Assembly: GCA_951812855.1 (NCBI GenBank)
Contig: OX638337.1
Span: 930,001-962,000 of the forward strand
DNA from: an uncultured Lentisphaeria bacterium
GTDB lineage: Bacteria; Verrucomicrobiota; Lentisphaeria; JABSQK01; JAJFLO01
Direction: 5' to 3'
DNA length: 32,000 nt
The notes under the pieces were generated by a model. The model saw only the letters and a list, made by a program, of their open reading frames with translations. It had not been told where the DNA came from and ran no database searches. Positions 596 through 27,595 of the stretch are shown here, piece after piece. A program made the translations under genes and the position numbers. Each line of letters begins with the position of its first letter. The stretch's first letter is position 1.

Positions 596-1063
596 CGGTT
601 TGGCTGCCGTTTATTATTTCAGCATTATGGTACAAAAGAACAAAAAAACTATTACCTTCCAGACCTTGCAAATGGACAGGAAGTTTCCTGTTTCGCCTTA
701 ACCGAGCCAACTGCAGGACCTGATGCCGGGGCAATCGCCGCTCATGGAGAAATCTTCAAACATGAGAGTGGCGAACTTTATATGCGGCTTAACTTTCAAA
801 AACGCTACATTACACTGGCAGCTATATCAACGGTTATGGGATTGGCATTTAACCTGGATGATCCGGAAAACCTGCTTGGTAAAGGGACCGATTCAGGTAT
901 TACCTGTGCCTTAATTCCCAGTAATACACCTGGGGCTCGACTTGGAAGACGGCATGATCCTTTGGGTTCAGCTTTTTTCAATTGTCCAATTAATGGCGAA
1001 AATATTGAAGTGCCGTTGAACAAATATATTATCGGTGGAGTTGAAAATGCTGGCACATGTTAA
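596..1063 (+). pseudogene. Internal fragment of a FadE-type acyl-CoA dehydrogenase, truncated at both ends with no start codon
   Basis: The frame is open only from 596 (TAA at 593-595). Translation: ..[49 protein letters not shown]...[91 protein letters not shown]. By recall this follows the middle of E. coli FadE (LLQHYGT.EQK..YLP.LA.GQEI.CFALT.P.AGSDAGAI ... KRYITLAP.ATVLGLAF ... [11 protein letters not shown]...GRRH.PL ... DYIIGG...AG). Only about 155 aa of a much longer protein (about 800 aa by recall) remain. Similarity stops at about 1050-1056, where the RT remnant begins on the other strand. Confidence 0.7.
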
Positions 1064-1413
1064 TGAATTGTCTCTCTGCCGGCAGGGCAGTGACGCTTCC
1101 CGTAACCGTATAGTCTTTGACCATATTAAGTGCATTTTCTGCTTCCTCGAGATTTTGACACAAGACAACAAAATCATCCGCATAGCGGATCATATGAAAT
1201 CGGGATTCTGTCATCTGATGATCCAATGCATTCAGATAAAGACTGGCCAACACGGGTGAAATAACTGCCCCCGGAGAACTACCGCTTTGAGGTCTCCACG
1301 ATTCGAGAACGGCTCGGGCTTCGAACGGTGAGCTATTAAGTCCCTGAATAATTTCATTAACAAATCGATGATCGAGATCTATTCCATTTATTTAATGATG
1401 AGTGATTAATCAT
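1029..1413 (-). pseudogene. Group II intron-type reverse transcriptase remnant (frameshifted, internally deleted, C-terminally truncated)
   Basis: GGAGG (1425-1421) lies 7 nt before the ATG at 1413-1411, which opens MINHSSLNKWNRS..* (short frame). The next frame reads NGIDLDHRFVNEIIQGLNSSPFEARAVLESWRPQSGSSPGAVISPVLASLYLNALDHQMTESRFHMIRYADDFVVLCQNLEEAENALNMVKDY...ALPAERQFI. IIQ.L....P...V resembles RT0. PQ.G...ISP.LA..YL..LD is RT4 and RYADDFVV is the RT5 YADD box of group II intron RTs (compare my recall of LtrA: IIQSLKDGTYYPQPV / TPQGGILSPLLANIYLHELD / VRYADDFII). RT1-RT3, the X/maturase domain and the DNA-binding/endonuclease parts are absent. Confidence 0.7.
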
Positions 1414-4140: not shown

Positions 4141-4245
4141 TACTCCGATTTGACTGGCTGACGCCTTCACCTGCCGTGATCTGACTTTGTCCCGCCAGCA
4201 ATTTCCATTTTTAATCCACTTTTATAGAACTTAAAGGAGACTTAA

Positions 4246-5664: not shown

Positions 5665-5695
5665 TATCTCTAATTTGAAACTGCGAGGAAAAAGC

Positions 5696-6607: not shown

Positions 6608-7373
6608 TGAATTGATCGAGATCATAGGACCTGCATTTGTTGCGGGCCTCATGATTGCTCTCACTCACGCACCTCTCGGACTTGAGGTATATAAACGGGG
6701 AATCATTTTTATCGATCTGGCAATCGCACAATTCGCCGGTCTCGGGATGGTGACGGCAAACCTGATATGGCAGGAACCGGCATGGTGGATGGTTCAGATT
6801 CTTGCATTGGGATCGGCAATCGCAGCGTCGCTGGTCTTTCGGATGACAGAACGAATTCTTCCGGAAGAGCAAGAAGCCATTATTGGAAGCAGTTTTGTAC
6901 TTGCAGGAGCAACGGTAATCCTGCTTCTCGCAGATCAACCCCATGGTGGAGAGGAAATTCAACATCTCTTATCCGGCCAAATTCTTTTTGTCTCCTGGTC
7001 TGATGTAATATTCCATGTGCCGGTGTATTTATTCATACTCATATTATGGTTCAAATGGTCAGAGCATGCCAGACAGGGGAAACTATTCTATCTGTTATTT
7101 GCCTTTGCAATCACCTCTTCGGTCCAACTTGTCGGTGTTTTTGTTGTTTTCGCCAGCTTAATATTACCCGCACTTGCTGCGTTAAAATCGAAGCAAAAGT
7201 TGCCACTGGCATGGACCTGCGGTATTGCGTCAGTGATAATCGGTATTGTCGTTTCGACACTGATCGATGCACCGACAGGTCCAGTCATCGTTTTGACTTT
7301 TGTATTGACAGCTGTAACTATCAGAATTGCAACGGAACCGTTTAGCAACCTGTTTTCAACATCATTGAAGTAA
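6597..7373 (+). CDS. Metal ABC transporter permease (ZnuB / ABC-3 family)
   Basis: Polytopic hydrophobic ORF: FVAGLMIALTHAPLGLEVYKRGIIFIDLAIAQFAGLGMV..., LLSGQILFVSWSDV. ATG ATG at 6597/6600 overlaps the upstream stop (6605-6607). The track start at 6585 is a GTG. Confidence 0.8.
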   Translation: MMSNELIEIIGPAFVAGLMIALTHAPLGLEVYKRGIIFIDLAIAQFAGLGMVTANLIWQEPAWWMVQILALGSAIAASLVFRMTERILPEEQEAIIGSSFVLAGATVILLLADQPHGGEEIQHLLSGQILFVSWSDVIFHVPVYLFILILWFKWSEHARQGKLFYLLFAFAITSSVQLVGVFVVFASLILPALAALKSKQKLPLAWTCGIASVIIGIVVSTLIDAPTGPVIVLTFVLTAVTIRIATEPFSNLFSTSLK

Positions 7374-11071: not shown

Positions 11072-11124
11072 TAAAATACCTTCTCTAAAATTCAATACTC
11101 CGGAGTTGTATATAATTCATTTAT

Positions 11125-12121: not shown

Positions 12122-12541
12122 TTACACGCCATCAACCATTAGACATCCTCTAAATAAAATAATAAAAAATAATAAAATTATAAAAGGTAAAGCAATAATG
12201 AATCCACAACCGTATTTAAGAAAATCGGAAAACTCTGAATCTTTTTCCTGTTCTTTGAGAACAAGCCTTCCTGTTTTCAGATTCACTCTGCAAAATCTGC
12301 AAATAATTGCTTCCAGTTTTATAATTTCAGCACAATACGGGCACGCTCTCGTATCTTTTTTTGTCGGGATTTCGATGTCATCATCAACAATTTCAGCCTC
12401 AATAGGGTCATCAGCAACAGAAGAGCAAGGCTCCTCTATTTCCTCATTCTCTTTTTCCCTCCGGCCAGATGTCGAACTATTGCAGTTTGGACAATTTAAA
12501 TAACTTACAGGTATATATGCACCACACTCAAAACAATTCAT
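12122..12541 (-). CDS. Double zinc-ribbon protein with a C-terminal transmembrane anchor (hypothetical)
   Basis: 139-aa ORF with CFECGAYIPVSYLNCPNC and CPYCAEIIKLEAIICRFC (two CxxC...CxxC ribbons). An acidic linker joins them and the C-terminus is hydrophobic (GFIIALPFIILLFFIILF). It starts 21 nt after the thiolase stop on the same strand. Confidence 0.55.
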   Translation of the reverse strand: MNCFECGAYIPVSYLNCPNCNSSTSGRREKENEEIEEPCSSVADDPIEAEIVDDDIEIPTKKDTRACPYCAEIIKLEAIICRFCRVNLKTGRLVLKEQEKDSEFSDFLKYGCGFIIALPFIILLFFIILFRGCLMVDGV

Positions 12542-12562: not shown

Positions 12563-13606
12563 CTACCATTCCAATCCAAGCATTAAGGTGTTAAGACCAC
12601 TGCCAATTCCTAAAAATCCAACACGTTCACCCTCTTCTAAAATAGCTCTTTCTTCAGATAAAGCCGCCGTCAACGGTAAGGAGACAGTACCCATATTCCC
12701 CAGATATTCAAAGGTGCTGAGATCTTTTTCTTTCGGCATGTCTAAAGCATTTAATATTTGCTTCTGATGCTCCGCCCCTACCTGGTGACAGACAATTTTA
12801 TCAACATCTTCAGCATTATATTGAATCTCCTCTAAAAAATCGACCCAGGTACTCTTAAATAATTTGATACCATACTTTAGAACATTTGCTGAATCTGTTG
12901 TCATAAATGGATACATATGTCCATTTGATGAACGTTCTGTCCCCCACCGGCATAAATTATGAAATTCCGGTGCAGTACGGTGCATACCCCCAACTAATTT
13001 GTGACCTTGATTTTCAGAAAATGAATCATCTGTCAACAATACGGCAATAGAACCAGAGCCTCCAGTAAGTGTAGCCAGAGATGTCAGGAAAAAATCCATG
13101 GATTTTTCATCAAGCATCTTTGAAATCATTGTTTCATTGATTTCCCGTGCACTTTCACAGGAGACAACAAGACCCGCACGAATTTGTCCGAGTTCGATTC
13201 GATTCGCAATATCAAGCATTCCGTTGAGCACTCCCAGGCACGCATTTGAAATGTCGTATACAATCGTTTTAGAACTTGCACCCAGTACATGAGCAACCGG
13301 ACACGCGGTAGCCGGTTCGAAGTTTTCTCTGCACACTCCGGAATATACGAGAACTTCAATGTCAGAAATATCTAAATCTCCCTTGCTTAATGCATTCTGA
13401 GCTGCACTGATTGCTCCCTGTGACAATGGTGTATTCGGCTCCCACCATCGACGTTCGTAAATTCCAGTCAAAGTCTCTAATTGACCTGGTTGCATGTGAA
13501 GTGTCTCATACAAGCTTTCTAAACGTTCTTCAAGTTCCAGTGATGTAACGACAACGGGTGCTAATTCATATCCTATTGATCTAACATATACACGATTATA
13601 ACGCAC
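12563..13606 (-). CDS. Thiolase-fold condensing enzyme, OleA-like / KAS III (FabH) family
   Basis: 347-aa ORF with a GTG start at 13606, 4 nt after the upstream stop. It has a Cys-His-Asn triad: DISNACLG (Cys codon 13238-13240, aa 123), CHQVG, and GNMGTVSLP 30 residues after the His. It ends GIGSGLNTLMLGLEW. A Glu in FEPATA lies 26 residues before the Cys. HQV replaces the FabH HQAN. Confidence 0.8.
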   Translation of the reverse strand: MRYNRVYVRSIGYELAPVVVTSLELEERLESLYETLHMQPGQLETLTGIYERRWWEPNTPLSQGAISAAQNALSKGDLDISDIEVLVYSGVCRENFEPATACPVAHVLGASSKTIVYDISNACLGVLNGMLDIANRIELGQIRAGLVVSCESAREINETMISKMLDEKSMDFFLTSLATLTGGSGSIAVLLTDDSFSENQGHKLVGGMHRTAPEFHNLCRWGTERSSNGHMYPFMTTDSANVLKYGIKLFKSTWVDFLEEIQYNAEDVDKIVCHQVGAEHQKQILNALDMPKEKDLSTFEYLGNMGTVSLPLTAALSEERAILEEGERVGFLGIGSGLNTLMLGLEW

Positions 13607-13610
13607 AATT

Positions 13611-16022
13611 TTATCCTGAATATTTTAATGTAAATTGTTTCATTTCATAAATAATCCGTCCATCTACACTGAGAAAGCCATCGGCATAAATAATATGATT
13701 TTTCTCGTCAATTTCCATGATACAGGCTTCAACAGTCACTTGCTCATCAGTTGGTATGATTTGACCCCGATAAACCCAGCTATGCTCTTTATTTAATGCA
13801 ATATTCTCAAATGTTAACGTAGGTTTTTCTCCCCAGTGCTCAACTGCAAAGACTTGTAACAATTGGATAAATGATTCAAGGCCGAGTGATCCGGGACATA
13901 CCGGATCTTCGTAAAAGTGTGCCTTGAAAAACCACTCATCAGGATTCACGTTCTTTATGCCCCTGATAAATCCTTTCCCTGCGGGACCGCCATCCTTAAC
14001 AAACAAACTGACGTGATCAATCATCCGGAGCATTTCGTCTGGAAACGGTTTAGATTCAGGAAACGGGAATGACGATCCGCGAGCGATTTCCTGTTCGTCT
14101 GGAACATAAGGTTTTGCACCGATTATTCCGACCTGATCTGCCAGAGCAGCTTTTGTAAAGAAACCAAAATAAGTTTTTCCCCTATAGATTGACTGACCTT
14201 GGTTTTTAACATGAAAATCAAAATGCTGAATTACCATTCCGCCTGATGTAGAAACAGATGTAATTTTTATGTTAACAGATACTATACCGGCAGTTTCTTC
14301 AACGGGCAGATATTGAACCGCACTTCCTCCTAAATTACGAAATTTAAGATCAACATCGCTTGTAAGAGCTGATCCTATATAAGCGGCTAACCAACCACAC
14401 GGCTGCAACGCAATTTCCAGCAATACACTAAATGGCATTCCACTTACATTTGACTTAAAATACCATTCACCTGGAGGAACATCATATTCACCGGTAATCT
14501 CACCTCCCCCAACCATTTTCCATTGTTCCGCATCAATGGCGACAATCCGATCCAAAAACTGGTATGGTGGTCCCGGTAATCTGGCAATTTTACGATCATT
14601 ATCAAAAATTTTGTACTGCTCTCCAAATGCTTCCGAGGGTTTACCAATTGCAAACGCAAGAATTCGGTCCCGATCAAATATCGGAGCATTTGATTGCTGA
14701 ATCTGTTCCGGTTTATCATTGATTGTTTGCGAATTCCAGAGCGTTTCTAATTTTTCGCGGGTTAATCCCGTCAGTCGAACTGACATATCCGTTATTTCAA
14801 CGATCGGCTTACCATCAGCAAACATTAATGCATCAACTATGGTATACGGTTCCGGACGATATCCCAGTTCCTTAACAGATATTTCGTAAATCACCTTCTC
14901 TGTCGATTGCAAAACCTGTCCCCGACATTTTAACCGTCCTTTAATTCCAGTTACCGGTTCGCATACGGCATCTGATTTTTCCCCTATCCATCCTATTCTC
15001 ATCAGGTAAACTCGCAGGGTATGTAAACAGCATTCATACATCAACGTCCCCGGCATGACTTTATCATCCACGAAATGACATGTTAAGAACCAGTCATCCG
15101 GATGAATATCTGCCTCTCCTTTGATTAATCCTAATCCGAATCGTCCACCCTTCGGATTCAATTCTAAGATACGATCAACCAATTTCATTTTACCAGCAGG
15201 AAGGGTTAAGGGATCATTGAGACTGATTCCTGAAAATAAGTGTCCGAAACATCCTTCAAAATTGCCGTTTCTCAAAGCAGCAATCTGGTCATCACTGTAA
15301 GATTCCACGACCATCGGTACAAATTCTGTCCAATCATCGGGAACAATTCCCTTTACTTTCTTTTTCTGAAACTCTGTTTTAATTATCCCCTTACCTGCAT
15401 CAAGTTCTTTTTGAGTAAAGAAGCCCGCACATCCGTTCTCCATTGTCAACAAGGGTTTACCATCAACAGTACCTTCGAAATTGAATCGAAATAAATACGT
15501 GTTACCCTGCTTAAAAAAGTGATCTATTTTAATATCGTAATGAATCACTCTTCCGGGTCCCGGCAATGAACTGTGAAACGTAACTTCTGCATCCAGTAAC
15601 CGATAAACGGCGAATCCCTTAGACTCAAAATCAATTCCAAGATAACCCGATAAAAAGAGATCTGCCTGCCCGGCTTCAACAGCAATACATGTTGGAATCC
15701 GGCCATTGTCCAAATACCACGAATTTGGATGGATATCATGCTCGGTAACAACCCGTCCAGATGTCATTGATCGCACTTCACCATTAATTTCCATTATACG
15801 ATCTACCAGCATCAGCGGTTCATCAGGCAGCCGTACCCGAGTGGGGTAGGAATCAACGTCATTAAATTCCGGGCCCAATACTTTTCCTATAGATCCAATT
15901 GCGAATTCCATGCACATCTCTCGGTCCAGTACAGGAACAATTTCCTCCCGCTGATCCGAAAAACTACTATTGTTAGATTCATCGGCCACATTATTAGACA
16001 TTTGTTCGCTAAGATCAGGTGT
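13611..16022 (-). other. PfaC-like domains: two FabA-type dehydratase/isomerase units, each preceded by a pseudo-DH hot-dog
   Basis: DWFLTCHFVDDKVMPGTL (His codon 15075-15077, aa 1835) and EWFFKAHFYEDPVCPGSLG (His codon 13917-13919, aa 2221). The preceding pseudo-DH segments begin LDREMCMEFAIGSIGKVLG and FDRDRILAFAIGKPSEAFG. Confidence 0.8.
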
Positions 16023-19000
16023 CGTATCGAAATTTGCCGGTGATGATGAATTTTTTAATTGTTCCAGTAACTGCTGAGAAATTTCTTCTCCACCATTACG
16101 GTTGGCAATCATCCCGAGCAATTGCATCTGATATGAAATAGTCGATGAAATAGTCTTCGACAATTGATTTGAAAAATCAAGATACTGCTGATGAGCGTTT
16201 ATTTTCTCTTCTTCCGAGCTGATCATATGCTGAATTACGGGATCAGAAATATCAGAGGAATTTTGCCTATATTCTAAAGGTTCACTCGGTACTGGAACTT
16301 TCTCTTTTAAAATAGGTGCAGATACAGTCATTTCCGGAAAATCCGGAATTTTAAATTCACCGGTATCAGTTGATACTGTAATATATTCAGCCGGATTTAA
16401 TTCTGATACATCCTGATGTTCTAAAACATTTGTATCGTGTCCATATAAATTTGATAAATCAACAGGAGAACGTTCCGCAATAAGATTTGCTAATAGACGC
16501 AAAATTGCGACGATACTGTCCTGTCCATGATAACAGACTGATCTGACCATATGTGGCCGATCCTTTAAAATGCTGGAAATCATTCGAGTACATGAGACTC
16601 CCGGGCCTATTTCGATGAACAACCGCACCCCATCTTTGTATGAGTTTTCAATTAAACCCGGAAAATTCACTTTTGTCAATGCCTGTGCCTGAATAGAATC
16701 TGAAACTCTGGCACTGCTGATTGGATAACTCTTTTCCCAGGCCATACTGTAAAATCGGATATGCTCAGGTTTGCCCGTTTTCAATGTATGAAATTCCCGA
16801 TATTCATTTTCAATGGCTTTTGCAACCTCACAATGAACGGTTGGTGCCCCATAGATAGGCAGAAATCGACATCCCAGGGATTTCACAACATCTTCTACCT
16901 GATCATTATCTCCGCCGATGACACACTCATCCGGAGTATTTACGATCAATAAATACACTCTGTCTTTTTTGCTAATCACTTTCTCCACTTGCTGAGGTGA
17001 ACAGTCAATCATACCAATTGTCCACGAAACGTCTTCTTCATTCGGAACATTCCATGATTTTCGAACAGTACGACATTCTCCGACTAATTCATTTGAGAAT
17101 ATTGGTGATGCGTTCATTCGTCGAATCATTTCGTCACGATCATTCCAGGCACCCAGAGCAACGAGCCCTGATGATTCTCCCAGGCTATAACCAATCATAG
17201 CATCCGGCTTAACACCAAAATATCGAACAATATCACTGATCGCTGTGCCAATAAACACTTGTCCGGTTATCATGGCTTTGTGATTCTTAAAGGCATCACA
17301 ACCCGTTTTGTCATACCAGAAATAATCGGGTAATAATTGATCATGCAAAAATTCATTTTCGGTATCCTGTTTATGGAATATTTCCGGCCAGGCCGCTGAT
17401 AAATCTCGTCCCATTCCCCGAAAATGATTCCCAAAGCCGGGAAAAACAAATGCAAGCCGGCCCGATTTTCCAAGCGGTTTCGGATTAAAGAAAATTTGTT
17501 CAATCTCATCAGGTCTCCAGGAATCATCATCTATATTTTCCAATGCCTTATTTATCAGCGTAAACAGCTCTGATTGATTCTTTGCCAGAATTGTTAATCC
17601 CAGTTTCTCTTTTATTTGTGTTCTATATTTTGCCCACCATTTCCTTGCCCAGTATTCGATGCTATATGAATTATCGTTACTCGTTATGAATTCTCTCAGT
17701 TCAATTAATCGATTACTTAAATCAAGATTAGTATTTCCTTCAATCGCAAATATTGCTGCTGACCTGGCACCCAGAGGCTGATAACGATCTCCATTAACAA
17801 GAGACGGATTTAACTTTTCATATCCTTCAAGTATGACATGAGTACAATTTCCATCCATACTGAAACAGCTGACTCCTGATCGCCGCGGTCCGTTTACTCT
17901 GTTACGTAACCAAAATTGTGAGGCTTTTGGAAACACAAATCCTCTTTTTTCAAGATCTGTATTGCTTGAATCAACATTTCTTAATGGTGGCAGCATTTCC
18001 TGATAAAGACACAAACACACTTTGACTATCGACGCCAATCCCGCTGCAGCGCCAGTATGTCCAATATCTGATTTTACACTATTAAGAAAACAGGAAAAAT
18101 CACTGTTCTTCCCGCTAAAAAGATCCAGTAAAGCGGAACATTCCATGTCATCTTCGGGGGGATATCCACTCCCGTGTGCTTCAAGTAATTGAAGGGAATC
18201 AGGATCGATTCCAGATTCTGTATATGCTCTGCTAAACGCAGTTTTATACGCGTTAGAAGATGGAACAAGGGTATTAAAATCAGGACCGGCTGCAGTACCA
18301 ATTCCTCTAATTACTGAATAGATTCTATTTCCATCTCTTTCAGCATCGTCAAGTCGTTTTAATATTAAAGCAGCAGCACCTTCTCCGACAACAGTACCGT
18401 CTGCGTTGGCATCAAATGGTTTTAATAATGATTGATTTGAAAATGAGCGGTCCGCGTGTGTATTAATTAAAGATCGGATATCCCCGGCAAGATCTACAGC
18501 ACCGACAAGTGCCTGATTTATCTCTCCATTTTGTAATGCATGACACGCAACGTCCAATGCATGTATTCCCGAACTCTCTTCACTTGAAATTGTGTGGCTT
18601 GGACCACCCACACGAAACTCTCTGGCGATTCGACTGGCAACAATACCGCCTAAAGCTCCCATCGTCCGGTCTGCATTCAACGGGGGACCTGCAGCATTCC
18701 TCATTTTATCGAGCAATTCATTAAATTCACTTTCAGAGAGTTCTGAACCATTACGTTTACAGTAATCATTGAGTTGATTATATAAGGCCCACCTGAAATG
18801 AAAATTAGTGGTACACAAATCCAAACCCAACCCTATAAATACTCCTGTATCCAGCCCATCCTTATCATCATAATCTGCATCCTGAAATGCCTCATCAGCA
18901 GCAAGCAGCATTACCAGTTGTTGTGGTAACATTTCCTTGAGTTCGTTTGGTGGAATGCGATATTTCCCAATCTGGATATTTAACTGATCGATAAAATAAC

Positions 19001-20579
19001 CTTGAAATGACGACTGATCATATCCTGCCGTCTTAAACCACCTGCTCTCCAAAGCCCCCCACCATTGACGATTGAAATCTGAAGTCTTTGTATTATCCCC
19101 GCCTAATACTCTTTCCTGAAACTCTCTCAGGTTTTTCCAAGGTCCGAAATAAGTGCCAAGGCCAACAATAGCAATTGGTACCTGAGCATTATCTTTTTGT
19201 TTTGATTTTCTCGATTTTTTATGCCTCTTTACCGAAGGGAACCATTCTTCAACAATAACATGGGCATTGATACCCCCAAAACCAAAGGCATTAACAGCTG
19301 CCCTTCTTGGAGAATCCCCATCTTTACGCAACCATTTTTCACTCTTTTTGAGGACCTGAAATTGTGAATCATCGATATCAAAATCCGGATTCGGTGTTTG
19401 AAAATTTGCGGTTGGCGGTAACGTTTCATTTTTTATCGATAGCAATACTTTAATCAAACCTGCAGCACCGGCACCCGTTAGTAAATGACCTACATTTGAT
19501 TTAACTGAACCGATAACACAGGGATTCTCTCTTTTGGGAGCTCTGTCCCATAAACGGCATAAGCTGTCAAATTCTACACGATCCCCCAGTGGCGTGCCGG
19601 TTGCATGGCATTCAATCAGATCGATGTCCCATGGATTCAGTTTGGCCTGTTCATATGCAGGCTTCATTGACCGTAATTGACCTTCAGAATCAGGAGCTAA
19701 GAGATTGCCTTCAATATCATTTGATAGACCAATACCTTTTATTACTCCATAAATTGTATCCTCCGCCTGTATTGCATCATCTAATCGTTTTAGGACAACT
19801 ATCCCGGCACCTTCACCAACAATTAACCCGTCACCCCGTGCATCAAACGGTGTACATTGTCCTTTTACTGACAATGCATGAAGCTGCGAAAATCCCATTT
19901 GGGTATATAACGAATCTGCACGTGATACACCTCCAGTCAACATTGCATCCGCCCGCCCCGCCTGCAGTTCATCAACTGCGAGTTTCAATGCGTATAAAGA
20001 CGATGCACATGCTGCGTCCAGCGTATAGGTCCCCCCCCCTAATCCTAAAGATTTTGCAAGTATGCCTGCAGGTAATCCGGTTACATATCGATTAATCGAA
20101 TTGTTTGGACATCCACAATTATTAACGTTTAACTGAGGAATTTTCTCAAAAAATGTTTTACCCAAAATTTCCAGTGCTTGTGCAGATGATTTCTCTGTAG
20201 GCAATGCGATGTTGCCGATTACAATGCCTGCTCTCCTAAGATCTAATGAATCGGTTTTGCAATCTTTAAATGCATTTCTGCCAGCGTGCAGAACATAGTG
20301 ATTGAGTAAATCAAGTGATGATAAAAAGGCAGGATTGATATCCAGACCGGCAATATCCAATGAAAAGTTTTCTATAAAACAACTTCGAGTTGAATATACT
20401 TTGTCTGGTTTTACTCCGGATTTATCATATAAAACATCGGAATCAAGTATCCACCGCCCTTTTGGAACGTCCTTATTGGCATCGTAACCGTTAAGAATGT
20501 TATTCCAAAATTTCTCAAGAATGAGGGCTTCGGGGAAAATGCCACCAATTCCAACAATTGCTATTGGTATATCATTCAT
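13611..20579 (-). CDS. pfaC: PfaC-like PUFA/secondary-lipid synthase subunit: KS-CLF-AT-(pseudoDH+FabA-type DH)x2
   Basis: 2322-aa ORF; its domains are listed separately. The start lies 2 nt after the pfaA-like stop. Confidence 0.9.
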   Translation of the reverse strand: MNDIPIAIVGIGGIFPEALILEKFWNNILNGYDANKDVPKGRWILDSDVLYDKSGVKPDKVYSTRSCFIENFSLDIAGLDINPAFLSSLDLLNHYVLHAGRNAFKDCKTDSLDLRRAGIVIGNIALPTEKSSAQALEILGKTFFEKIPQLNVNNCGCPNNSINRYVTGLPAGILAKSLGLGGGTYTLDAACASSLYALKLAVDELQAGRADAMLTGGVSRADSLYTQMGFSQLHALSVKGQCTPFDARGDGLIVGEGAGIVVLKRLDDAIQAEDTIYGVIKGIGLSNDIEGNLLAPDSEGQLRSMKPAYEQAKLNPWDIDLIECHATGTPLGDRVEFDSLCRLWDRAPKRENPCVIGSVKSNVGHLLTGAGAAGLIKVLLSIKNETLPPTANFQTPNPDFDIDDSQFQVLKKSEKWLRKDGDSPRRAAVNAFGFGGINAHVIVEEWFPSVKRHKKSRKSKQKDNAQVPIAIVGLGTYFGPWKNLREFQERVLGGDNTKTSDFNRQWWGALESRWFKTAGYDQSSFQGYFIDQLNIQIGKYRIPPNELKEMLPQQLVMLLAADEAFQDADYDDKDGLDTGVFIGLGLDLCTTNFHFRWALYNQLNDYCKRNGSELSESEFNELLDKMRNAAGPPLNADRTMGALGGIVASRIAREFRVGGPSHTISSEESSGIHALDVACHALQNGEINQALVGAVDLAGDIRSLINTHADRSFSNQSLLKPFDANADGTVVGEGAAALILKRLDDAERDGNRIYSVIRGIGTAAGPDFNTLVPSSNAYKTAFSRAYTESGIDPDSLQLLEAHGSGYPPEDDMECSALLDLFSGKNSDFSCFLNSVKSDIGHTGAAAGLASIVKVCLCLYQEMLPPLRNVDSSNTDLEKRGFVFPKASQFWLRNRVNGPRRSGVSCFSMDGNCTHVILEGYEKLNPSLVNGDRYQPLGARSAAIFAIEGNTNLDLSNRLIELREFITSNDNSYSIEYWARKWWAKYRTQIKEKLGLTILAKNQSELFTLINKALENIDDDSWRPDEIEQIFFNPKPLGKSGRLAFVFPGFGNHFRGMGRDLSAAWPEIFHKQDTENEFLHDQLLPDYFWYDKTGCDAFKNHKAMITGQVFIGTAISDIVRYFGVKPDAMIGYSLGESSGLVALGAWNDRDEMIRRMNASPIFSNELVGECRTVRKSWNVPNEEDVSWTIGMIDCSPQQVEKVISKKDRVYLLIVNTPDECVIGGDNDQVEDVVKSLGCRFLPIYGAPTVHCEVAKAIENEYREFHTLKTGKPEHIRFYSMAWEKSYPISSARVSDSIQAQALTKVNFPGLIENSYKDGVRLFIEIGPGVSCTRMISSILKDRPHMVRSVCYHGQDSIVAILRLLANLIAERSPVDLSNLYGHDTNVLEHQDVSELNPAEYITVSTDTGEFKIPDFPEMTVSAPILKEKVPVPSEPLEYRQNSSDISDPVIQHMISSEEEKINAHQQYLDFSNQLSKTISSTISYQMQLLGMIANRNGGEEISQQLLEQLKNSSSPANFDTTPDLSEQMSNNVADESNNSSFSDQREEIVPVLDREMCMEFAIGSIGKVLGPEFNDVDSYPTRVRLPDEPLMLVDRIMEINGEVRSMTSGRVVTEHDIHPNSWYLDNGRIPTCIAVEAGQADLFLSGYLGIDFESKGFAVYRLLDAEVTFHSSLPGPGRVIHYDIKIDHFFKQGNTYLFRFNFEGTVDGKPLLTMENGCAGFFTQKELDAGKGIIKTEFQKKKVKGIVPDDWTEFVPMVVESYSDDQIAALRNGNFEGCFGHLFSGISLNDPLTLPAGKMKLVDRILELNPKGGRFGLGLIKGEADIHPDDWFLTCHFVDDKVMPGTLMYECCLHTLRVYLMRIGWIGEKSDAVCEPVTGIKGRLKCRGQVLQSTEKVIYEISVKELGYRPEPYTIVDALMFADGKPIVEITDMSVRLTGLTREKLETLWNSQTINDKPEQIQQSNAPIFDRDRILAFAIGKPSEAFGEQYKIFDNDRKIARLPGPPYQFLDRIVAIDAEQWKMVGGGEITGEYDVPPGEWYFKSNVSGMPFSVLLEIALQPCGWLAAYIGSALTSDVDLKFRNLGGSAVQYLPVEETAGIVSVNIKITSVSTSGGMVIQHFDFHVKNQGQSIYRGKTYFGFFTKAALADQVGIIGAKPYVPDEQEIARGSSFPFPESKPFPDEMLRMIDHVSLFVKDGGPAGKGFIRGIKNVNPDEWFFKAHFYEDPVCPGSLGLESFIQLLQVFAVEHWGEKPTLTFENIALNKEHSWVYRGQIIPTDEQVTVEACIMEIDEKNHIIYADGFLSVDGRIIYEMKQFTLKYSG
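16530..17492 (-). other. PfaC-like domain: PfaB-type acyltransferase
   Basis: LAFVFPGFGNHFRGMGRDL; IGYSLGESSG (Ser codon 17184-17186, aa 1132). It has GYSxGE rather than the GHSxG/AFHS of malonyl transferases. Confidence 0.75.
17865..19190 (-). other. PfaC-like domain: chain-length-factor (KS-like, no active-site Cys)
   Basis: IAIVGLGTYFG. The KS-equivalent motif reads TISSEESSG; the position aligned to Cys is the Glu codon at 18576-18578. EAHGSGYPPED and NSVKSDIGH are retained. Confidence 0.75.
19245..20573 (-). other. PfaC-like domain: ketosynthase (KS)
   Basis: IAIVGIGGIFP; TLDAACASS (Cys codon 20007-20009, aa 191); ECHATGTPLGD; GSVKSNVGH. Confidence 0.85.
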
Positions 20580-20581
20580 TC

Positions 20582-21478
20582 CTAAGAAACAGTATGCAAG
20601 ACAGGTTCTAATTTATTTTTATTAAAGGCTTTATATAAAGATTTATCCTGAATACAACAATAATCTTCGATCTTCGCAATAATTAAGCCTCTGCTATCCT
20701 GAAACTCAATATCCGCATGGATTGAAGATGCGACTTTATCCGTAATTTGAATTACGATTCGCATTCCGTCCCCTGGAAAATCACTTTGGAACTGCTTGTA
20801 ACTTCCAATAGACACAGGTAATGAGGGAGTATCATCTTCTTCAATACTCCACAAAATCATTAATTGGAAACTGACATCTAATACAAGTGGGTCAGATAAC
20901 CACTTTTGCCTTAACGGTTTGTTAATCCAATCTTTAGGTAATGAGGCTGATTGACTCCATCCAATCATTCCCTTTGTTGAAATTCCATCTATTCGGTCAA
21001 TTCCCTGGAAAAGTTTTCCATGGAAGAGTTTATTATCACTGTAAAAATCATTATCATGTGGATAATCTTCCAGCTTTGTTTCCTTTATCTGCGAGGCAAC
21101 CTGCTGATATTTCACGCATAGCAAGACATCAGCTTCAGCATGGACAACTTCATTTTCATCTGCAACCCGACATAATTGGATTGGAACAATAAACTGATCA
21201 TTATCCTTCTGAATTTTTGCAGATTTCAGACGAATCGTGACTTCCTCTCCATTAGAAATATCGACCCGTGAGTAAATTTTAAACTGGTCGAGTCCTTTAA
21301 ATCGTAAACCGGGATTTCCATGGATAGCACTGTGTCCCATCCACTCAATCATCATCGACATTGGCAGAACACCTTTTCCATTAAATGTATGAGATTCTAA
21401 AAATGGATAATCATCAATTGTCAATTTTCGGTCCAGCACGGTTGAATACGTATGAGCCTGTGATGATTGTTTTCGTTG
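20582..21478 (-). other. PfaA-like domain: PKS-type dehydratase
   Basis: HxxxGxxxxP motif in LESHTFNGKGVLPMSMMIEW (His codon 21389-21391, aa 2069). Confidence 0.75.
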
Positions 21479-24400
21479 TTTTACCTGTGTGGTTATCTTC
21501 GTATTCGGGCCGAAAACAACGATTTCCGCCGGATGACGACCGCCATTTAAGCTGATTTCCTTTACAAGTAAATCGCCGCCAGCCTTTAACGGTATGAGAC
21601 CAATATTCTCCTGTTCGAATATTGTTTTCAATTCAGGCGTTACCATTCCTCCATTCCAGGGTCCCCAATTTACAGAAACCACTCTGCAATTTCTGCGCTC
21701 TAACGATTGCTGTTGAGCTATTTTATTCAGAACTTCATTTGCGACAGCATAATCTATTTGTCCTTTCCTCCCGTATCGTCCGGTCGATGAAGAAAACATT
21801 GCAATAAATTTGAGATCTTCATTTTTCAGTGCTGCGAGTAATGCTAACTGACCAGCCACCTTTGTCGAATAAACTAAATCAAATTGCTCCTCTGTTTTAT
21901 CTTCTATAAGCCGATCTGCAAGGACTCCTGCACCATGAATTAAACCGCGAACAGGTCCAAAATCTTTCTTAATTTCTTTGACCACATTCGATACTTCTTG
22001 TTTATTCCGGATATCAACAGATCGGTAAATAACAGTGGATCCTTCTGCCCTAAAACGCTCAAGATTATTTAAAACCTCCCTATTGTTTATAATTGATTGA
22101 TATTCCGCCTGAACCTCTTTCGGCAACATTTTCTTTTGGGAATGACCGATTATTCCACGTTTAATTGCACCCTCATCTGCCAATGATTTCAACCATTCCG
22201 GTTCAACAGCCGGCTCAGGACTCCGACCTAATATCGCCAGGGCAGGCTGCCATTTTTTTACTAATGCCATAGTGCTTTCCGCTGTAACTCCCCGGGCACC
22301 TCCGGTAATAATCACCACATCGTCTTTACTCAACGACAGTGTCGATACTTTTTTGTCTGAATTTGCTGATAACAACTCTAATCCGATACTGCCATTTTGA
22401 GAAACACCGACTTCGACAGGCCCTTCGCAGAATAATTCATCGGCAATTCGTTGACTAATAGTTGCAGCACTTTTAGTACTTACATCATAATCAATGGCTT
22501 TACATTTAACTTCAGACCATTCATGATGTGCAGTTTTTGACAATCCCGCCAATCCTCCTGACATTGGATCACTTTTACCATTCAAGCCATCGATACCGAA
22601 CTTACCGTCCAACCGTGATACGGTAACAAATAGGGATTCATCGTTACGCCCCGCTTCTCGTAAGGCTTTAGAACAATTTTTTAACAACGTAAATGCATTT
22701 CTCAGGATTCGGTCTTCTGTGCCTGATCGAGGTGATATAATGATCAATCCATTCAGTTTCGATGGATATTCCAAATTGTCAATTGAGCTTAGATCAACTA
22801 ATTTCGTTTGAAACCCTCGTTTTATCAGCTCTTTGCTCAGCCGATTAGAAATCCCATTTTTCCCATCATTCGTGATCCAGAACACGGAACCTCTTGTAAA
22901 GTTAATCTTCCGTCTTTCTGAAGCCGGATCTAAATTTACCAGTTGAAGTTCAAAACGTTCAACAAACTCATCATTCTCGTTTTCGCTGGATTGATCCTGA
23001 TTTGAAACACTGTCAGAATGTACAGGCACAGAATCAACAACTCTCTGAGTATCATTATTTTCTCCAAGAAACTCGACAATCTGGTTTAATGTTCGTAATA
23101 CCCCGAGCTGCTCCGGTCCCACGCCAGGTGAATCTGGAAGTTTTTCCTGGATGGCCGATAAAATTTCTACGCGTTTGATAGAATCAATTCCCAAGTCTGA
23201 ATCCAACCCCATATCCAATGCAAGCATATCAACCGGATATCCTGTTTTATCAGCGACAACGTCCAGCAGCACAGACGCAATATGTTCGTTGTCCGCAGAA
23301 CACGTGGATTTTGTCACAGTGGGTGATTGTACAGTTGATTCTCCCTCTGGTTCATTTTGTGTTAAATAATCAACGATTTCGCCCAATGTCCTGAGAACAC
23401 CAAGATGCTCCTGCCCAACCTGAGGAGAATCAGGCAATTTCTCGTGTAAATCAGACAATATTTCAACACGTTTAATGGAGTCAATACCCAAATCCGAATC
23501 CAGCCCCATTTCCATTGATAACATGTCTTTCGGGTAACCGGTTTTTTCTGAAACTATGTTTAACAAAACAGACTCTGCCATACTGCGACTTGTGTTTATT
23601 TGCGATGATTCGTTTGAATCAGTTGTAACAACAGTTTCACTCACTTCAGTGGTTGAATTGACCGCTAAAAATCCAACAATTTCATCTAATGTTCGCAACG
23701 TACCCAATTGTTCAGGACCAATTTTTGGTGCTTCGGGAATCTTATCCTGAAGATCTGATAAAATTTCGACACGTTTAATTGAATCAACTCCTAAATCTGA
23801 ATCCAGTCCCATATCCATGGTTAACATGTCTTCTGGATAACCTGTTTTTTCTGAAACAATTGAAATAAGAACAGAAGCAATGTCTACCTTATTACTATTG
23901 TTGGTTCCAGACTTGGATTGAACAGAAACGTCTGTAACAATTACAGAATTTTCTTCACTTTTCCTGGAATTTGCACCTAAAAATTCTACAATTTCCTCTA
24001 ATGTTCGGAGTGTTCCAAGATGTTCCGGGCCTGCAGCTGGAGAATCAGGCAGAGCCTCCTGCAACGATGACAATATCTCAACACGCTTTATTGAATCGAT
24101 TCCTAAATCTGAATCCAACCCCATATCAAGAGTCAACATTTCAACCGGATATCCAGTCTTCTCAGATACAACACTTAACAATACTTGTTTAATGCGGTTA
24201 TTGTTTGTAGACGTTTGCGATGGTGTGGAAGAATCAGGTTTTACTACAGGTTCAGGATCAGGTGTATTTACTGTAACAGGTTTACCTTGATTTACAGCAG
24301 AACCGGCACTTGCTGTCGGTGGGGATTCGACACTCTTTGAACTGCCGGTTGACATCGTCGAACCGACTACCCCGGGGGGGTGCTTATTGAGCGTATGCTG

Positions 24401-27400
24401 TTGTTGAGAAATTAAAGCATTCAATGTTTGCTGAGCCTCTTGCTGGCCTTGTAAAAACTGACTATGCAATTTTGATGTATTCGTTTGAAGTTGTTGCAAT
24501 GCCACCATATTTTGCTGGGTTAACTTTAATGTCTCTATTAGTGCTTTATTGTCCATTGGGTTATCTAAATGAGTATTCCCGACAGAGATTGATTTATTCA
24601 TTGTATTCATAGTTTTAACATCGTTTAATTGTCCTGTATCTGAGGCATGAATATTTGGCCGGGAACCTCTTTCAAATGTGTCAGTACTCGATATGGGCAG
24701 GTTGGCTGTTTGTTTGGGTTTAGGTGGCTTCACCGATTTTGGTTCAAAACTATTTGCACCGCAAAGTGCCACAACGAAACCGGATTTCTCTTCGGGTTCC
24801 AGGTTCACTCCTTCATCCCATTGATCAAGGTGAACGGCATACCCCATTGATGCTAACTGGGCTAATACCATAGCTAAACTAAGAACACCTGAACGTCTTC
24901 CCCTCGATGAATCCAGAGCTAAAGAAGTACATTCCCTGTTTTTCAATATAGAATTTATTAATCCACTTAACTGATTGCCGGGACCAACTTCTAAAAATGT
25001 TCGTACCCCAGACGTATACATATTTTCAATCTGCTGAATAAATTCAACCGGCTTCGAGATTTGCTCTGCAAGAATTTGACGGGCCTTGTCAACAGCCTTG
25101 GGATAGGGCTTAGCCGTCGTATTTGCATATACCGGAATTTTGCCTGTGTTAAAAGAAATTTTCTCAAGTACTTCCCTAAACGGTTTACTCGCATGAGAAA
25201 CCCATTCGCTATGGAATGCAGCTGATACGTTTAATTTCTTATTTGTAATATTTTTTTGTGTAAAAATCTTTGCTGCTTTTTCAATTTCGTTTAATGCTCC
25301 GGATAAAACAGTTTGTTCGGGTGCATTTTTATTTGCTATAACAAGGTTTAAGCCTTCTTTTTTAATCAGATCCAAGGCTTGTTTTACCGAACTTCGGACA
25401 GCCAACATTGCACTTTTAATTTCTTCAGTTTCAGCCATTAGCTGACCTCGAACATTTGAGAGCTTATGCAAGGCTTTTTCGCGAATTTTCCCGGCAACAC
25501 ACAGTGCCGTCAATTCTCCATAACTGTGTCCTGCAACTGCATCGGGACTAATAGAAAAATGCTTAAAAATATTTGCCACACCTAAACTAACCGCACCAAT
25601 TGCAGGTTGGACATTTTTAGTGTCTCTGAGTGCTGATTCGTGCTTTAACTGAGCTTCTTCTGTGAATTCTGACTGAGGATAAATCAAATCACTCAGCTTA
25701 ATATTTGACAATGAATCCTTAAATTCAGAAAAGACATTATTTGCATCTGAAAGGGCTTTCTGAAACTGCGGAAATTTACATGCCAAATCCCTTAACATAC
25801 CAAGATATTGTGCACCCTGGCCCGGAAAAATAAATCCAAGCTTCCCTATCTCTTTTTCGCTGAAAAAATAAATTCCATCGGGTGTATTCCAATTGTCTCC
25901 ACTATCATTTTTCTGTAATTTGGAAATAATAGATGTGAAAGATTTACTAATATCTGTGCGTTGTTTCTCAATAACCATCATTAACCGGACTTTAGCATCT
26001 GTCTTAAATTCTTTTCTTGACAGAGCAGATTTTCTTCTCAATTGCTTCCAATTAAGATCACGTGGCCACGCCTTAATTTTGTCGATTAGTTTTTCTTTAT
26101 TTTCTGCTGAAAAACCAAGAATCTGTACATCACCGTCCCAGGTAATTTCCTGTTTTTCAGATTTGGCCTCTTCCATAACACAGTGAAAATTACTGCCGCC
26201 AAATCCAAATGCACTTACAGCAGCTCTCCTGGGATGATTCGGGTTGGGCAACCACGGTTGCTGTTCGCAGTTAATATAGAATGGGGTTTCACCTGATTCG
26301 ATAAGTTCTAATGGTTTGTCAACCTTTATTGTTGGGGGAATTACTTTATGATATAGAGCCAAAGCTGCTTTAATAACACCGGCCACTCCGGCCGCGGCTT
26401 TAGTATGGCCAATTTGAGATTTCACCGAACCAAGAGCACACCAGGTTCCCTGGGATTTATATGAACGATAAATGTCTGAAAGTGCTTTTACTTCTACAGC
26501 ATCACCAACTTTTGTTCCCGTTCCATGGGCTTCTACTAATTCGATAGTATCCGGGTTAATATCCGCCAATTCATAAGCTTCCCGTAAACAGCGGCTCTGG
26601 CCTTCACTGCTTGGGGCATAGACCGCATTGCCTTTACCATCACTTGATGAACCAATACCTTTTATGACCGCATAGATTTTATCGTTATCCCGTTCTGCAT
26701 CATCCAGGCGTTTCAGGATTACTGCACCTAAACCCTCTCCCAGAATCGTGCCATCTGCATTTGCAGCAAATGGTTTGGAATTACCTGTCGGTGATAACGC
26801 GGGAGTTTTACTAAAACACATATACATGAAAATATCGTTAAAGGTATCCATTCCCCCGGTAACGACCATATCAGCACGTCCTGCAGCCAACTCTAAACTC
26901 GCCAGGTGAAATGCGGTGAGCGAACTTGCACACGCAGCGTCAACAACACAATTTGTACCCCCCAGATCAAACCGATTTGCAATTCGGCCGGCTGCGACAT
27001 TACCCAACAACCCGGGAAATGAGTTTTCCTGCCAATCAACATAGGAATCGGAAATCCGGTCCATAACATCATTTTTTGTATGATCATCAACACCAGCAGC
27101 CTCAAGTGCATTTCGCCAAACTGGAAATCCTAATCGAGTCCCTAACGTCACCACAAGTTCAAGAGCACCCGTAATGCCTAATATCACACTGGTATTTTTA
27201 CGATTGAAGTCGCTCTTATCCCCATATCCCGCATCATCAAGTGCCTGTTTAGCCACGACCATACCTAATAATTGTGTCGTATCAATTGAATCAATATCAC
27301 GGGGAGAGATACCATATTCCATTGGATTAAAATCGACCCTGGATATGAATCCGCCTCGACGGGCATACGTGTGATCTCGTTTTTGCGGATCTTTATTGTA

Positions 27401-27595
27401 ATAATCTTCCGGTCGCCAGTGTGTTTCCGGTATATCTGAAATCCCATCGACTTTATTTGTAATATTTGCCCAATATGCATCCGCAGTATCTGCTTTTGGA
27501 AACAAACATCCCATCCCTACAATTGCTAACGGAACTTGTTTGCTGGTTTTTGAAGCAGTTTTCTTCGCAGGGTTACGCGATGTTGTTTTTTTCAT
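20582..27595 (-). CDS. pfaA: PfaA-like PUFA/secondary-lipid synthase subunit: KS-AT-ACPx4-KR-DH
   Basis: 2337-aa ORF; its domains are listed separately. Its ATG overlaps the pfaD-like stop (ATGA, 27595-27592). Confidence 0.9.
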   Translation of the reverse strand: MKKTTSRNPAKKTASKTSKQVPLAIVGMGCLFPKADTADAYWANITNKVDGISDIPETHWRPEDYYNKDPQKRDHTYARRGGFISRVDFNPMEYGISPRDIDSIDTTQLLGMVVAKQALDDAGYGDKSDFNRKNTSVILGITGALELVVTLGTRLGFPVWRNALEAAGVDDHTKNDVMDRISDSYVDWQENSFPGLLGNVAAGRIANRFDLGGTNCVVDAACASSLTAFHLASLELAAGRADMVVTGGMDTFNDIFMYMCFSKTPALSPTGNSKPFAANADGTILGEGLGAVILKRLDDAERDNDKIYAVIKGIGSSSDGKGNAVYAPSSEGQSRCLREAYELADINPDTIELVEAHGTGTKVGDAVEVKALSDIYRSYKSQGTWCALGSVKSQIGHTKAAAGVAGVIKAALALYHKVIPPTIKVDKPLELIESGETPFYINCEQQPWLPNPNHPRRAAVSAFGFGGSNFHCVMEEAKSEKQEITWDGDVQILGFSAENKEKLIDKIKAWPRDLNWKQLRRKSALSRKEFKTDAKVRLMMVIEKQRTDISKSFTSIISKLQKNDSGDNWNTPDGIYFFSEKEIGKLGFIFPGQGAQYLGMLRDLACKFPQFQKALSDANNVFSEFKDSLSNIKLSDLIYPQSEFTEEAQLKHESALRDTKNVQPAIGAVSLGVANIFKHFSISPDAVAGHSYGELTALCVAGKIREKALHKLSNVRGQLMAETEEIKSAMLAVRSSVKQALDLIKKEGLNLVIANKNAPEQTVLSGALNEIEKAAKIFTQKNITNKKLNVSAAFHSEWVSHASKPFREVLEKISFNTGKIPVYANTTAKPYPKAVDKARQILAEQISKPVEFIQQIENMYTSGVRTFLEVGPGNQLSGLINSILKNRECTSLALDSSRGRRSGVLSLAMVLAQLASMGYAVHLDQWDEGVNLEPEEKSGFVVALCGANSFEPKSVKPPKPKQTANLPISSTDTFERGSRPNIHASDTGQLNDVKTMNTMNKSISVGNTHLDNPMDNKALIETLKLTQQNMVALQQLQTNTSKLHSQFLQGQQEAQQTLNALISQQQHTLNKHPPGVVGSTMSTGSSKSVESPPTASAGSAVNQGKPVTVNTPDPEPVVKPDSSTPSQTSTNNNRIKQVLLSVVSEKTGYPVEMLTLDMGLDSDLGIDSIKRVEILSSLQEALPDSPAAGPEHLGTLRTLEEIVEFLGANSRKSEENSVIVTDVSVQSKSGTNNSNKVDIASVLISIVSEKTGYPEDMLTMDMGLDSDLGVDSIKRVEILSDLQDKIPEAPKIGPEQLGTLRTLDEIVGFLAVNSTTEVSETVVTTDSNESSQINTSRSMAESVLLNIVSEKTGYPKDMLSMEMGLDSDLGIDSIKRVEILSDLHEKLPDSPQVGQEHLGVLRTLGEIVDYLTQNEPEGESTVQSPTVTKSTCSADNEHIASVLLDVVADKTGYPVDMLALDMGLDSDLGIDSIKRVEILSAIQEKLPDSPGVGPEQLGVLRTLNQIVEFLGENNDTQRVVDSVPVHSDSVSNQDQSSENENDEFVERFELQLVNLDPASERRKINFTRGSVFWITNDGKNGISNRLSKELIKRGFQTKLVDLSSIDNLEYPSKLNGLIIISPRSGTEDRILRNAFTLLKNCSKALREAGRNDESLFVTVSRLDGKFGIDGLNGKSDPMSGGLAGLSKTAHHEWSEVKCKAIDYDVSTKSAATISQRIADELFCEGPVEVGVSQNGSIGLELLSANSDKKVSTLSLSKDDVVIITGGARGVTAESTMALVKKWQPALAILGRSPEPAVEPEWLKSLADEGAIKRGIIGHSQKKMLPKEVQAEYQSIINNREVLNNLERFRAEGSTVIYRSVDIRNKQEVSNVVKEIKKDFGPVRGLIHGAGVLADRLIEDKTEEQFDLVYSTKVAGQLALLAALKNEDLKFIAMFSSSTGRYGRKGQIDYAVANEVLNKIAQQQSLERRNCRVVSVNWGPWNGGMVTPELKTIFEQENIGLIPLKAGGDLLVKEISLNGGRHPAEIVVFGPNTKITTQVKQRKQSSQAHTYSTVLDRKLTIDDYPFLESHTFNGKGVLPMSMMIEWMGHSAIHGNPGLRFKGLDQFKIYSRVDISNGEEVTIRLKSAKIQKDNDQFIVPIQLCRVADENEVVHAEADVLLCVKYQQVASQIKETKLEDYPHDNDFYSDNKLFHGKLFQGIDRIDGISTKGMIGWSQSASLPKDWINKPLRQKWLSDPLVLDVSFQLMILWSIEEDDTPSLPVSIGSYKQFQSDFPGDGMRIVIQITDKVASSIHADIEFQDSRGLIIAKIEDYCCIQDKSLYKAFNKNKLEPVLHTVS
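21566..22918 (-). other. PfaA-like domain: ketoreductase (structural plus catalytic subdomains)
   Basis: VVIITGGARGVT Rossmann motif (about 22290-22320); SSSTGRYGRKGQIDYAVANE (catalytic Tyr context). Confidence 0.8.
23066..24208 (-). repeat. Four tandem ACP domains (coding repeat of about 300 nt)
   Basis: The motif GLDSDLG(I/V)DSIKRVEILS occurs four times. The phosphopantetheine Ser codons are at 24092-24094, 23780-23782, 23477-23479 and 23180-23182 (aa 1168, 1272, 1373, 1472). The core peptides are near-identical, but the DNA differs at many synonymous sites. Confidence 0.9.
24896..25813 (-). other. PfaA-like domain: malonyl-type acyltransferase
   Basis: FIFPGQGAQYLGM; AGHSYGE (Ser codon 25523-25525, aa 691); VSAAFHS. 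Confidence 0.85.
26186..27538 (-). other. PfaA-like domain: ketosynthase
   Basis: LAIVGMGCLFP; VVDAACASS (Cys codon 26930-26932, aa 222); EAHGTGTKVGD; GSVKSQIGH. Confidence 0.85.

Follow-up and report, generated by a model that had tools for sequence, protein, structure and literature searches.

The oleA gene analysed here lies in a 32,000-nt stretch of DNA from an uncultured Lentisphaeria bacterium (assembly GCA_951812855.1, contig OX638337.1, positions 930,001 to 962,000), which is called the window below. It occupies positions 12563..13606 on the minus strand and encodes a 347-amino-acid-residue protein predicted to be an OleA thiolase of the acyl-CoA:acyl-CoA alkyltransferase type, with Glu97, Cys123, His274 and Asn304 as catalytic residues. 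An earlier reading made from the letters of the window alone (the sequence-only reading) had placed an OleA-like gene at these coordinates, which were correct. The open reading frame begins with GTG. This start is right because the N terminus of the protein, MRYNRVYV...GYELAPVVVTS, agrees with those of homologues; AGGA is found 9 nt upstream of it. Glu97 lies in FEPATA (residues 96-101), Cys123 in NACLG (121-125), His274 in CHQVG (273-277) and Asn304 in GNMGT (303-307). Glu97 and Cys123 are 26 residues apart, and the protein ends in GIGSGLN...W. All of these motifs and the Glu-Cys spacing, as listed earlier, were found in the translation.

oleA is the last biosynthetic gene of a pfaD-pfaA-pfaC-oleA operon on the minus strand. 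The four genes form one operon since the gaps between them are only −4, 2 and 4 nt. The first gene (27592..29238) encodes a 548-residue pfaD-like enoyl reductase (TIGR02814 pfaD_fam, 628.6 bits, cut-off 449) and overlaps pfaA by 4 nt. The pfaA-like subunit (20582..27595, 2337 residues; TIGR02813, 1695 bits, cut-off 1010) has the layout KS-AT-ACP x4-KR-DH, with Pfam matches to KS, AT, four PP-binding, KR and PS-DH domains. The pfaC-like subunit (13611..20579, 2322 residues) is of the pfaBC-fusion type, KS-CLF-AT plus four FabA-type dehydratase hot-dog segments (Pfam ketoacyl-synt x2, Acyl_transf_1 and FabA x4), and shares 51% identity with its counterpart ahead of oleABCD in Geobacter AOG1. Pfam and NCBIfam domains thus identify the three genes upstream of oleA as pfaD (ER), pfaA (KS-AT-ACPn-KR-DH) and a fusion of pfaB and pfaC (KS-CLF-AT-DH2). 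No thioesterase domain was found among the Pfam matches of the synthase subunits. The pfaC/oleA junction reads ...TCA GGA TAA AATT GTG..., which puts the start of oleA 4 nt past the PfaC-like stop codon, as the sequence-only reading had stated.

Assignment of the protein to the OleA family

Databases give the window protein the name '3-oxoacyl-ACP synthase III', the generic name carried by the NCBIfam family NF006720 (PRK09258, EC 2.3.3.20). The protein scored 463.4 bits against this family over profile positions 1-338 (cut-off 285), and NF006720 was the sole NCBIfam family to exceed its own cut-off. The family was checked with known OleAs. The core of the crystallised Xanthomonas campestris OleA, taken from the alignment to the crystal protein, scored 475 bits, and a Geobacter OleA encoded directly before oleB-oleC-oleD scored 496 bits. 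Because both known enzymes score in this way, NF006720 is a model of OleA. When all PDB sequences were searched, the 12 best matches were Xanthomonas OleA entries (E 2.5e-48 to 4e-46, residues 3-347). The best match outside OleA was a Burkholderia β-ketoacyl-ACP synthase III (KAS III; E 8e-21), and PqsD (E 1e-12) and CorB and E. coli FabH (both about 2e-5) were also matched.

A gap-free HMMER alignment puts FEPATA on LEPSTA of wild-type Xanthomonas OleA and on LQPSTA of the E117Q crystal sequence. Glu97 is therefore homologous to the catalytic Glu117 of OleA, as had been suspected from the spacing. Cys123, His274 and Asn304 align to Xanthomonas Cys143, His285 and Asn315, and the four residues are invariant across 86 family sequences. 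The AlphaFold2 model (a monomer, built from a 34-sequence alignment) had a predicted local distance difference test score (pLDDT) of 89.5 and a predicted template modelling score (pTM) of 0.90. In a fold search with this model, the 28 best PDB matches were all Xanthomonas OleA structures, with template modelling (TM) scores of 0.88-0.92. One of them, the X. oryzae orthologue 3FK5, was deposited as FabH; the other 27 carry the label OleA. FabH structures ranked after them, at TM 0.77-0.83. Against X. campestris OleA (PDB 3ROW, 4KU3, 5VXF and others) the TM score was 0.92 and the match extended over the full length, the window protein having one insertion of 9 residues. Unlike the window gene, the Xanthomonas gene belongs to an oleABCD cluster without a Pfa synthase, its product uses C10-C16 acyl-CoAs derived from type II fatty acid synthesis, and the two proteins are only about 33% identical.

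The gene shows no sign of decay or functional change in its substitution rates, conserved columns or outgroup distance. Between the window and its closest relative, the metagenome-assembled genome (MAG) 'Verrucomicrobia bacterium OFTM167', oleA has a nonsynonymous rate (dN) of 0.050 and a synonymous rate (dS) of 1.33, that is, a dN/dS of 0.037, compared with 0.064 for pfaC, 0.077 for the prephenate dehydratase gene and 0.147 for the zinc-ribbon gene, both of which lie downstream. oleA is under strong purifying selection, tighter than that on pfaC. At columns conserved in ≥95% of sequences the window OleA departs three times, each time conservatively (K71N, A186S, A317S), and OleAs of canonical clusters depart 0-4 times. 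Its p-distance to Xanthomonas OleA is 0.67; the family median is 0.64.

Sequence and model comparisons strongly support the window protein as a true OleA orthologue and not an enzyme of the FabH, DarB or LstAB type, so that the OleA-like call of the sequence-only reading can be made more definite. A housekeeping FabH, or another KAS III type such as DarB/StlD, PqsD, the pyrone synthases CorB/MxnB or the β-lactone enzymes LstAB/NltAB, shares the thiolase (KAS III) fold and the Cys-His-Asn triad with OleA and would fit the name given by the databases. FabH, however, catalyses a condensation with malonyl-ACP that is decarboxylative, and it lacks a Glu at the position of OleA Glu117; in E. coli FabH this position is presumably Phe87. 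The FabH profile TIGR00747 gave 82.6 bits against a cut-off of 292.1 and NF006829 gave 103.4 against 249, on which FabH identity was rejected. The PDB E-values of PqsD, CorB and E. coli FabH fall far short of that of OleA, and the gene is part of a pfa operon, not a fab operon. DarB, which had been left open, is now excluded, as the StlD/DarB profile NF005293 gave no match at E ≤ 0.001. LstA/LstB and NltA/NltB, compared by description only, belong to the same superfamily and catalyse the same type of condensation, but they are encoded by paired genes in oleACD-type clusters without oleB, whereas in the window a single gene encodes the full catalytic set and neither oleC nor oleD is close by. 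The LstAB/NltAB type, left open as well, is not favoured because one gene bears both the Cys and the Glu. A FabH or KAS III identity is effectively refuted by the family scores, and we regard this whole group of enzymes as hardly credible candidates. Slightly less remote, though still improbable, is an OleA homologue that has acquired a new function, making primers or simply off-loading the synthase as an acyltransferase or thioesterase, and no longer condenses two chains head to head. OleA hydrolyses p-nitrophenyl esters efficiently, so that acyl-enzyme chemistry without condensation is possible (PMC7064751), and a synthase without a thioesterase domain might have use for such an enzyme. Against this, the protein retains the whole set of four catalytic residues, one of which, the Glu, is required solely for condensation; the three conservative changes are no more than members of canonical clusters carry; and the outgroup distance indicates no acceleration. 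The priming role that had been offered as one option is unlikely, the catalytic set of a non-decarboxylative OleA being invariant.

A functional OleA, acting as the head-to-head condensing enzyme at the end of the pfaD-pfaA-pfaC-oleA operon, is very probable in light of the sequence, the model and the analogous systems described below. Several points weigh against it. The OleA activity is a prediction from sequence, model and gene context, and Xanthomonas OleA, to which identity is so low, is the sole structurally characterised OleA. The model being a monomer, the position of Glu97 across the subunit interface is presumed. A 'high-confidence OleA' has been defined as one with ≥2 flanking ole genes within six genes (PMC7064751). 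The window oleA falls outside this definition, although its orthologues at 55-67% identity fall within it in about 70 of 80 loci.

Gene order in relatives and the absence of oleBCD beside oleA

The abutment of oleA on pfaC, which the sequence-only reading had singled out, is real but not unusual: it is the standard architecture and already published (PMC3098273). One genome per species was scanned, which gave 80 oleA loci at 52-91% identity from Verrucomicrobiota, Planctomycetota, Desulfuromonadales, Betaproteobacteria, Elusimicrobia, Gammaproteobacteria and others. By tblastn, about 70 of the 80 have the order pfaC-oleA-oleB-oleC-oleD, and in about 15 of those a phosphopantetheinyl transferase (PPTase) gene comes after the ole genes. 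In the Geobacter AOG1 locus (L003) the order pfaA-pfaC-oleA and the layouts of PfaA and the PfaBC fusion are like those in the window, and its OleA, also of 347 residues, is 63% identical with identical catalytic residues; the AOG1 sequence stops short of pfaD. Unlike the window, AOG1 has oleB, oleC, oleD and a PPTase gene directly after oleA, where the window has zinc-ribbon, prephenate dehydratase and phosphoglucomutase (PGM)-fusion genes.

The closest genome, OFTM167, has an OleA 92% identical to that of the window, and a relative in the JGI collection (L091) has one 83% identical. Both have the gene order pfaC-oleA-zinc-ribbon-prephenate dehydratase-PGM fusion found in the window, and the G+C content of all three is 39-40%. 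A literature search on the names of the OFTM MAGs returned nothing. The loci of the survey without oleBCD after oleA are those of the window lineage, OFTM198, one contig of ERZ25072980 (L008) and probably a Lentisphaerales contig (L015). In a neighbour-joining tree of OleA with 200 bootstraps, rooted on Xanthomonas OleA, the window, OFTM167 and the JGI relative were grouped in 200/200 replicates and OFTM198 was their sister in 178/200. These fall in a clade of eight (168/200) that also includes L008, L015, L010 and L012. L010 has oleB, oleC and oleD next to oleA, and L012 has kept oleB at the point where its contig ends. Because these members of the same clade keep adjacent ole genes, the detachment of oleA from oleBCD is derived. 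The absence of oleBCD beside oleA is a peculiarity of the lineage, seen in the window, OFTM167 and the JGI relative.

The oleA of OFTM198 (L006, JAJFLP010000080.1, 10001-11044) is solitary. It has no pfa or oleBCD genes within 10 kb and adjoins multihaem cytochrome genes. Its product has 13 departures at columns ≥95% conserved, the most among 85 family members, and this gene may be under relaxed selection or may have changed function.

In a tblastn search of the surroundings of the window oleA at E ≤ 1, OleB, OleC and OleD from two organisms served as queries, along with one PPTase. The search was extended beyond the window with alternate contigs 100% identical to it, about 3 kb past the low-coordinate end (L089) and 9.3 kb past the high-coordinate end (L090). 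No match to oleB, oleC or oleD was obtained in the window or in either flank, and none to the PPTase; the flanks carry menaquinone genes and a metallo-β-lactamase-fold gene, and no ole genes. At the same threshold the stretch downstream of oleA yielded no remnants of oleBCD either in OFTM167 (about 5 kb) or in the JGI relative (10 kb). The statement that the window holds no oleBCD is confirmed and extended to the flanks by this result. The word 'orphan', which the sequence-only reading had applied to the gene, is right for the window and the two flanks but not as a claim about the genome. The local orphan state is real and conserved in the lineage.

Three alternate contigs of ENA ERZ18545485 (atg000609l, atg002449l and atg002889l) match the window at 100% identity. 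Against ptg000035c, the primary contig of the same assembly (1,941,460 bp), 48 of 21,044 bases differ, and the sample therefore contained two very close strains. The exact OleA protein is encoded on ptg000035c and also on an NCBI contig of 1,947,381 bp. The ptg/atg names suggest that the assembly stems from a project on a host genome. The suffix 'c' of ptg000035c presumably marks a circular contig in hifiasm naming.

The gene 21 nt after oleA (12122..12541, minus strand) encodes a 139-residue double-zinc-ribbon protein with a hydrophobic C terminus, whose match to Pfam DZR is below the cut-off. A terminator-like site was looked for between the two genes and none was found. The zinc-ribbon gene is probably co-transcribed with oleA and may be unrelated to the lipid pathway. 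Its position is kept in OFTM167 and in the JGI relative, and the protein is 65% identical to that of OFTM167. It stands where oleB sits in canonical clusters. It is followed by the prephenate dehydratase gene, the PGM-fusion gene and then zinc-uptake genes and a DEAD-box helicase gene; yajC and secD lie on the other side of the pfa operon. The PGM-fusion protein (7967-11095, minus strand, 1042 residues) has four PGM/PMM domains and a C-terminal region of about 540 residues without a Pfam match; its gene is found two genes downstream of oleA, likewise in OFTM167 and the JGI relative. Positions 3730-7373 encode a Cys/His-rich protein of 136 residues with an HHHHDH run, a 472-residue protein without a family match, and ZnuA-like and ABC-3 permease proteins, which together look like a metal (zinc) uptake cluster. 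At 782-1253 two fragments overlap, a piece of an acyl-CoA dehydrogenase middle domain (782..1063, plus strand) and a piece of a reverse transcriptase with YADD (1029..1253, minus strand), neither of which reaches its Pfam cut-off. The two resemble the remains of pseudogenes, which would be compatible with reduction of the genome.

Indirect search for OleC and OleD in the genome

The genome beyond the flanks was probed indirectly. The queries, OleC and OleD, came from L010, whose cluster is the closest complete one (its OleA is 67% and its PfaC 58% identical to the window proteins). They were run against a collection of 5.8 billion proteins, and the best 120 of at least 8000 candidates were taken for each. 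Since the genome is a single contig of 1.94 Mb, matches on a contig of this length were sought. Among these best 120 matches per search, none lay on a 1.94 Mb contig, and no unexplained NCBI-only entry was seen that could belong to OFTM167. Both lists were flat, with 62-66% identity throughout the best 120. The collection is clustered at 90% identity, which hides members, the window OleA itself being hidden under that of OFTM167, and the members of ten clusters were checked as well. Of four OleC matches whose origin was not given, P0150, P0232 and P0123 belong to other organisms, in each case within a canonical oleA-oleB-oleC-oleD locus, and P0144 is in an oleC-oleD locus whose upstream gene is cut. 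All NCBI-only OleC entries of this kind came from other assemblies.

The search was calibrated with loci in which OleA and OleC are both present. With L010 OleA as the query the window OleA scored 537 bits, and those of L021, L019 and L016 scored 540, 538 and 532. The OleCs of these three loci ranked 4, 10 and 61, and that of L043 (OleA 493 bits) ranked 62. The recovery of these OleCs suggests that an OleC that had co-evolved with the window OleA should have ranked in the best 120. For several loci whose OleA scored 513-525, however, no OleC could be recognised among the best 120 matches. Together the OleC and OleD searches speak weakly for the absence of oleBCD.

Among the matches listed by a scan of JGI data with an OleC profile, none came from the three samples in which the 83% relative occurs. 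It is clear from JGI loci that split ole clusters exist in other organisms. In at least five loci (L104, L108, L112, L138, L171) oleC-oleD are present but the 6 kb upstream of them contain neither oleA nor oleB, and L108, L112 and L138 of these also have a PPTase gene; at least two (L134, L174) have pfaC-oleB-oleC-oleD with oleA missing. The orphan oleC-oleD loci of low G+C content (L171, L151, L172, L136) were rejected as the missing partners, as they are only 54-56% identical to L010 OleC and do not mirror the OleA tree.

Proposed mechanism and end product

By analogy with Shewanella and Geobacter, the Pfa synthase would build a polyunsaturated medium- or long-chain acyl group on the carrier domains of PfaA. 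OleA would then take two such Pfa-made chains, which would presumably be handed over directly from the ACP domains. The first chain would be loaded on Cys123. Glu97, contributed by the partner subunit in the presumed geometry of the homodimer, would deprotonate the α-carbon, and the carbanion would attack the second acyl thioester to give a 2-alkyl-3-keto acid by non-decarboxylative Claisen condensation. The roles of Glu117 and His285 in the mechanism of OleA come from studies cited in PMC7064751. OleA would also off-load the synthase; it is likely the release step because the synthase has no thioesterase domain. If OleD, OleC and OleB act as well, a very-long-chain polyolefin such as C31:9 would result, and without them the keto acid would decarboxylate spontaneously to a polyunsaturated ketone.

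A link between Type I pfa-like clusters and ole genes has been published, as has the formation of hentriacontanonaene, C31:9, by Geobacter bemidjiensis (PMC3098273). In Shewanella oneidensis and S. pealeana OleA is likewise fed by a Pfa synthase, with a C31:9 polyolefin as the product and a 31:8 ketone from OleA alone, and this system is the functional model for an outcome with OleA only. By the published description, the catalytic Cys is at position 123 as in the window protein (C123A mutant, PMC6463001). Unlike the window, Shewanella has oleABCD as an operon of its own, unlinked to pfa, and separate pfaB and pfaC genes, whereas the window oleA is in the pfa operon and detached from oleBCD. 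When pfaA-E and oleA alone were expressed in E. coli without the acyl-CoA synthetase FadD, a 31:8 ketone was formed, the keto acid decarboxylating spontaneously without OleBCD; inactive OleA still depressed eicosapentaenoic acid (EPA). Both observations indicate that OleA contacts the synthase directly, and the ketone formed without FadD implies that OleA takes its chains from the synthase (PMC6463001).

Two endings of the pathway have to be weighed. We give a nearly even chance to one in which oleB, oleC, oleD and a PPTase gene lie elsewhere on the chromosome and the product is a polyunsaturated very-long-chain olefin, as in Shewanella and Geobacter. The ACP domains of PfaA need a PPTase. Because the enzyme required by the four ACPs is not encoded nearby, at least one pathway gene must lie elsewhere in the genome, so that dispersal of pathway genes is already evident at this locus. 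Split ole clusters of both kinds are on record in JGI, and the strong purifying selection on oleA suits an intact pathway. The searches with L010 OleC and OleD tell against this ending, since their best 120 matches included no protein on a 1.94 Mb contig and no unexplained NCBI-only entry that could be from OFTM167, and the calibration ranks suggest that a co-evolving OleC would have appeared. It is a tentative but serious possibility that the lineage has instead lost oleBCD and works with OleA only, its end product being a very-long-chain polyunsaturated ketone or a keto acid used by an unrelated enzyme. The small chance that is left goes to other outcomes. The lack of any remnant of oleBCD in the window, its flanks and the two relatives fits such a loss. 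So do the stable gene order from pfaC to the PGM fusion over three relatives with 83-100% OleA identity and the sister lineage OFTM198, which has oleA without oleBCD too. The weakly negative protein searches point the same way, the small genome (a single 1.94 Mb contig) and the nearby gene debris are compatible with gene loss, and pfa with oleA alone does give the 31:8 ketone experimentally (PMC6463001). On the other side, the direct absence covers the window and recovered flanks, not the genome; no report was found of a wild organism with the ketone as its end product; and the tight constraint on oleA is equally explained by an intact dispersed pathway. The keto acid or ketone product implied by the sequence-only reading does not follow yet, the absence of oleBCD being local, the PPTase gene being missing as well and split clusters existing elsewhere.

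The OleA enzyme, its partnership with Pfa-type synthases and the pfaC-oleA adjacency are already known, and by itself the result corrects an annotation, OleA taking the place of '3-oxoacyl-ACP synthase III'. The point that stands out is that oleA has been detached from oleBCD in one lineage yet is very tightly constrained. What may be new, and we put this forward tentatively, is the occurrence in nature of an OleA-only branch of the head-to-head pathway, which until now has been observed in engineered strains only. If this is true, a bacterium of the Planctomycetes-Verrucomicrobia-Chlamydiae (PVC) group with a small genome kept an 18.7 kb Pfa operon with OleA and discarded OleBCD. A genome truly without oleBCD would be the first natural case of OleA ending the pathway, and would point to polyunsaturated ketones as real membrane or storage lipids.

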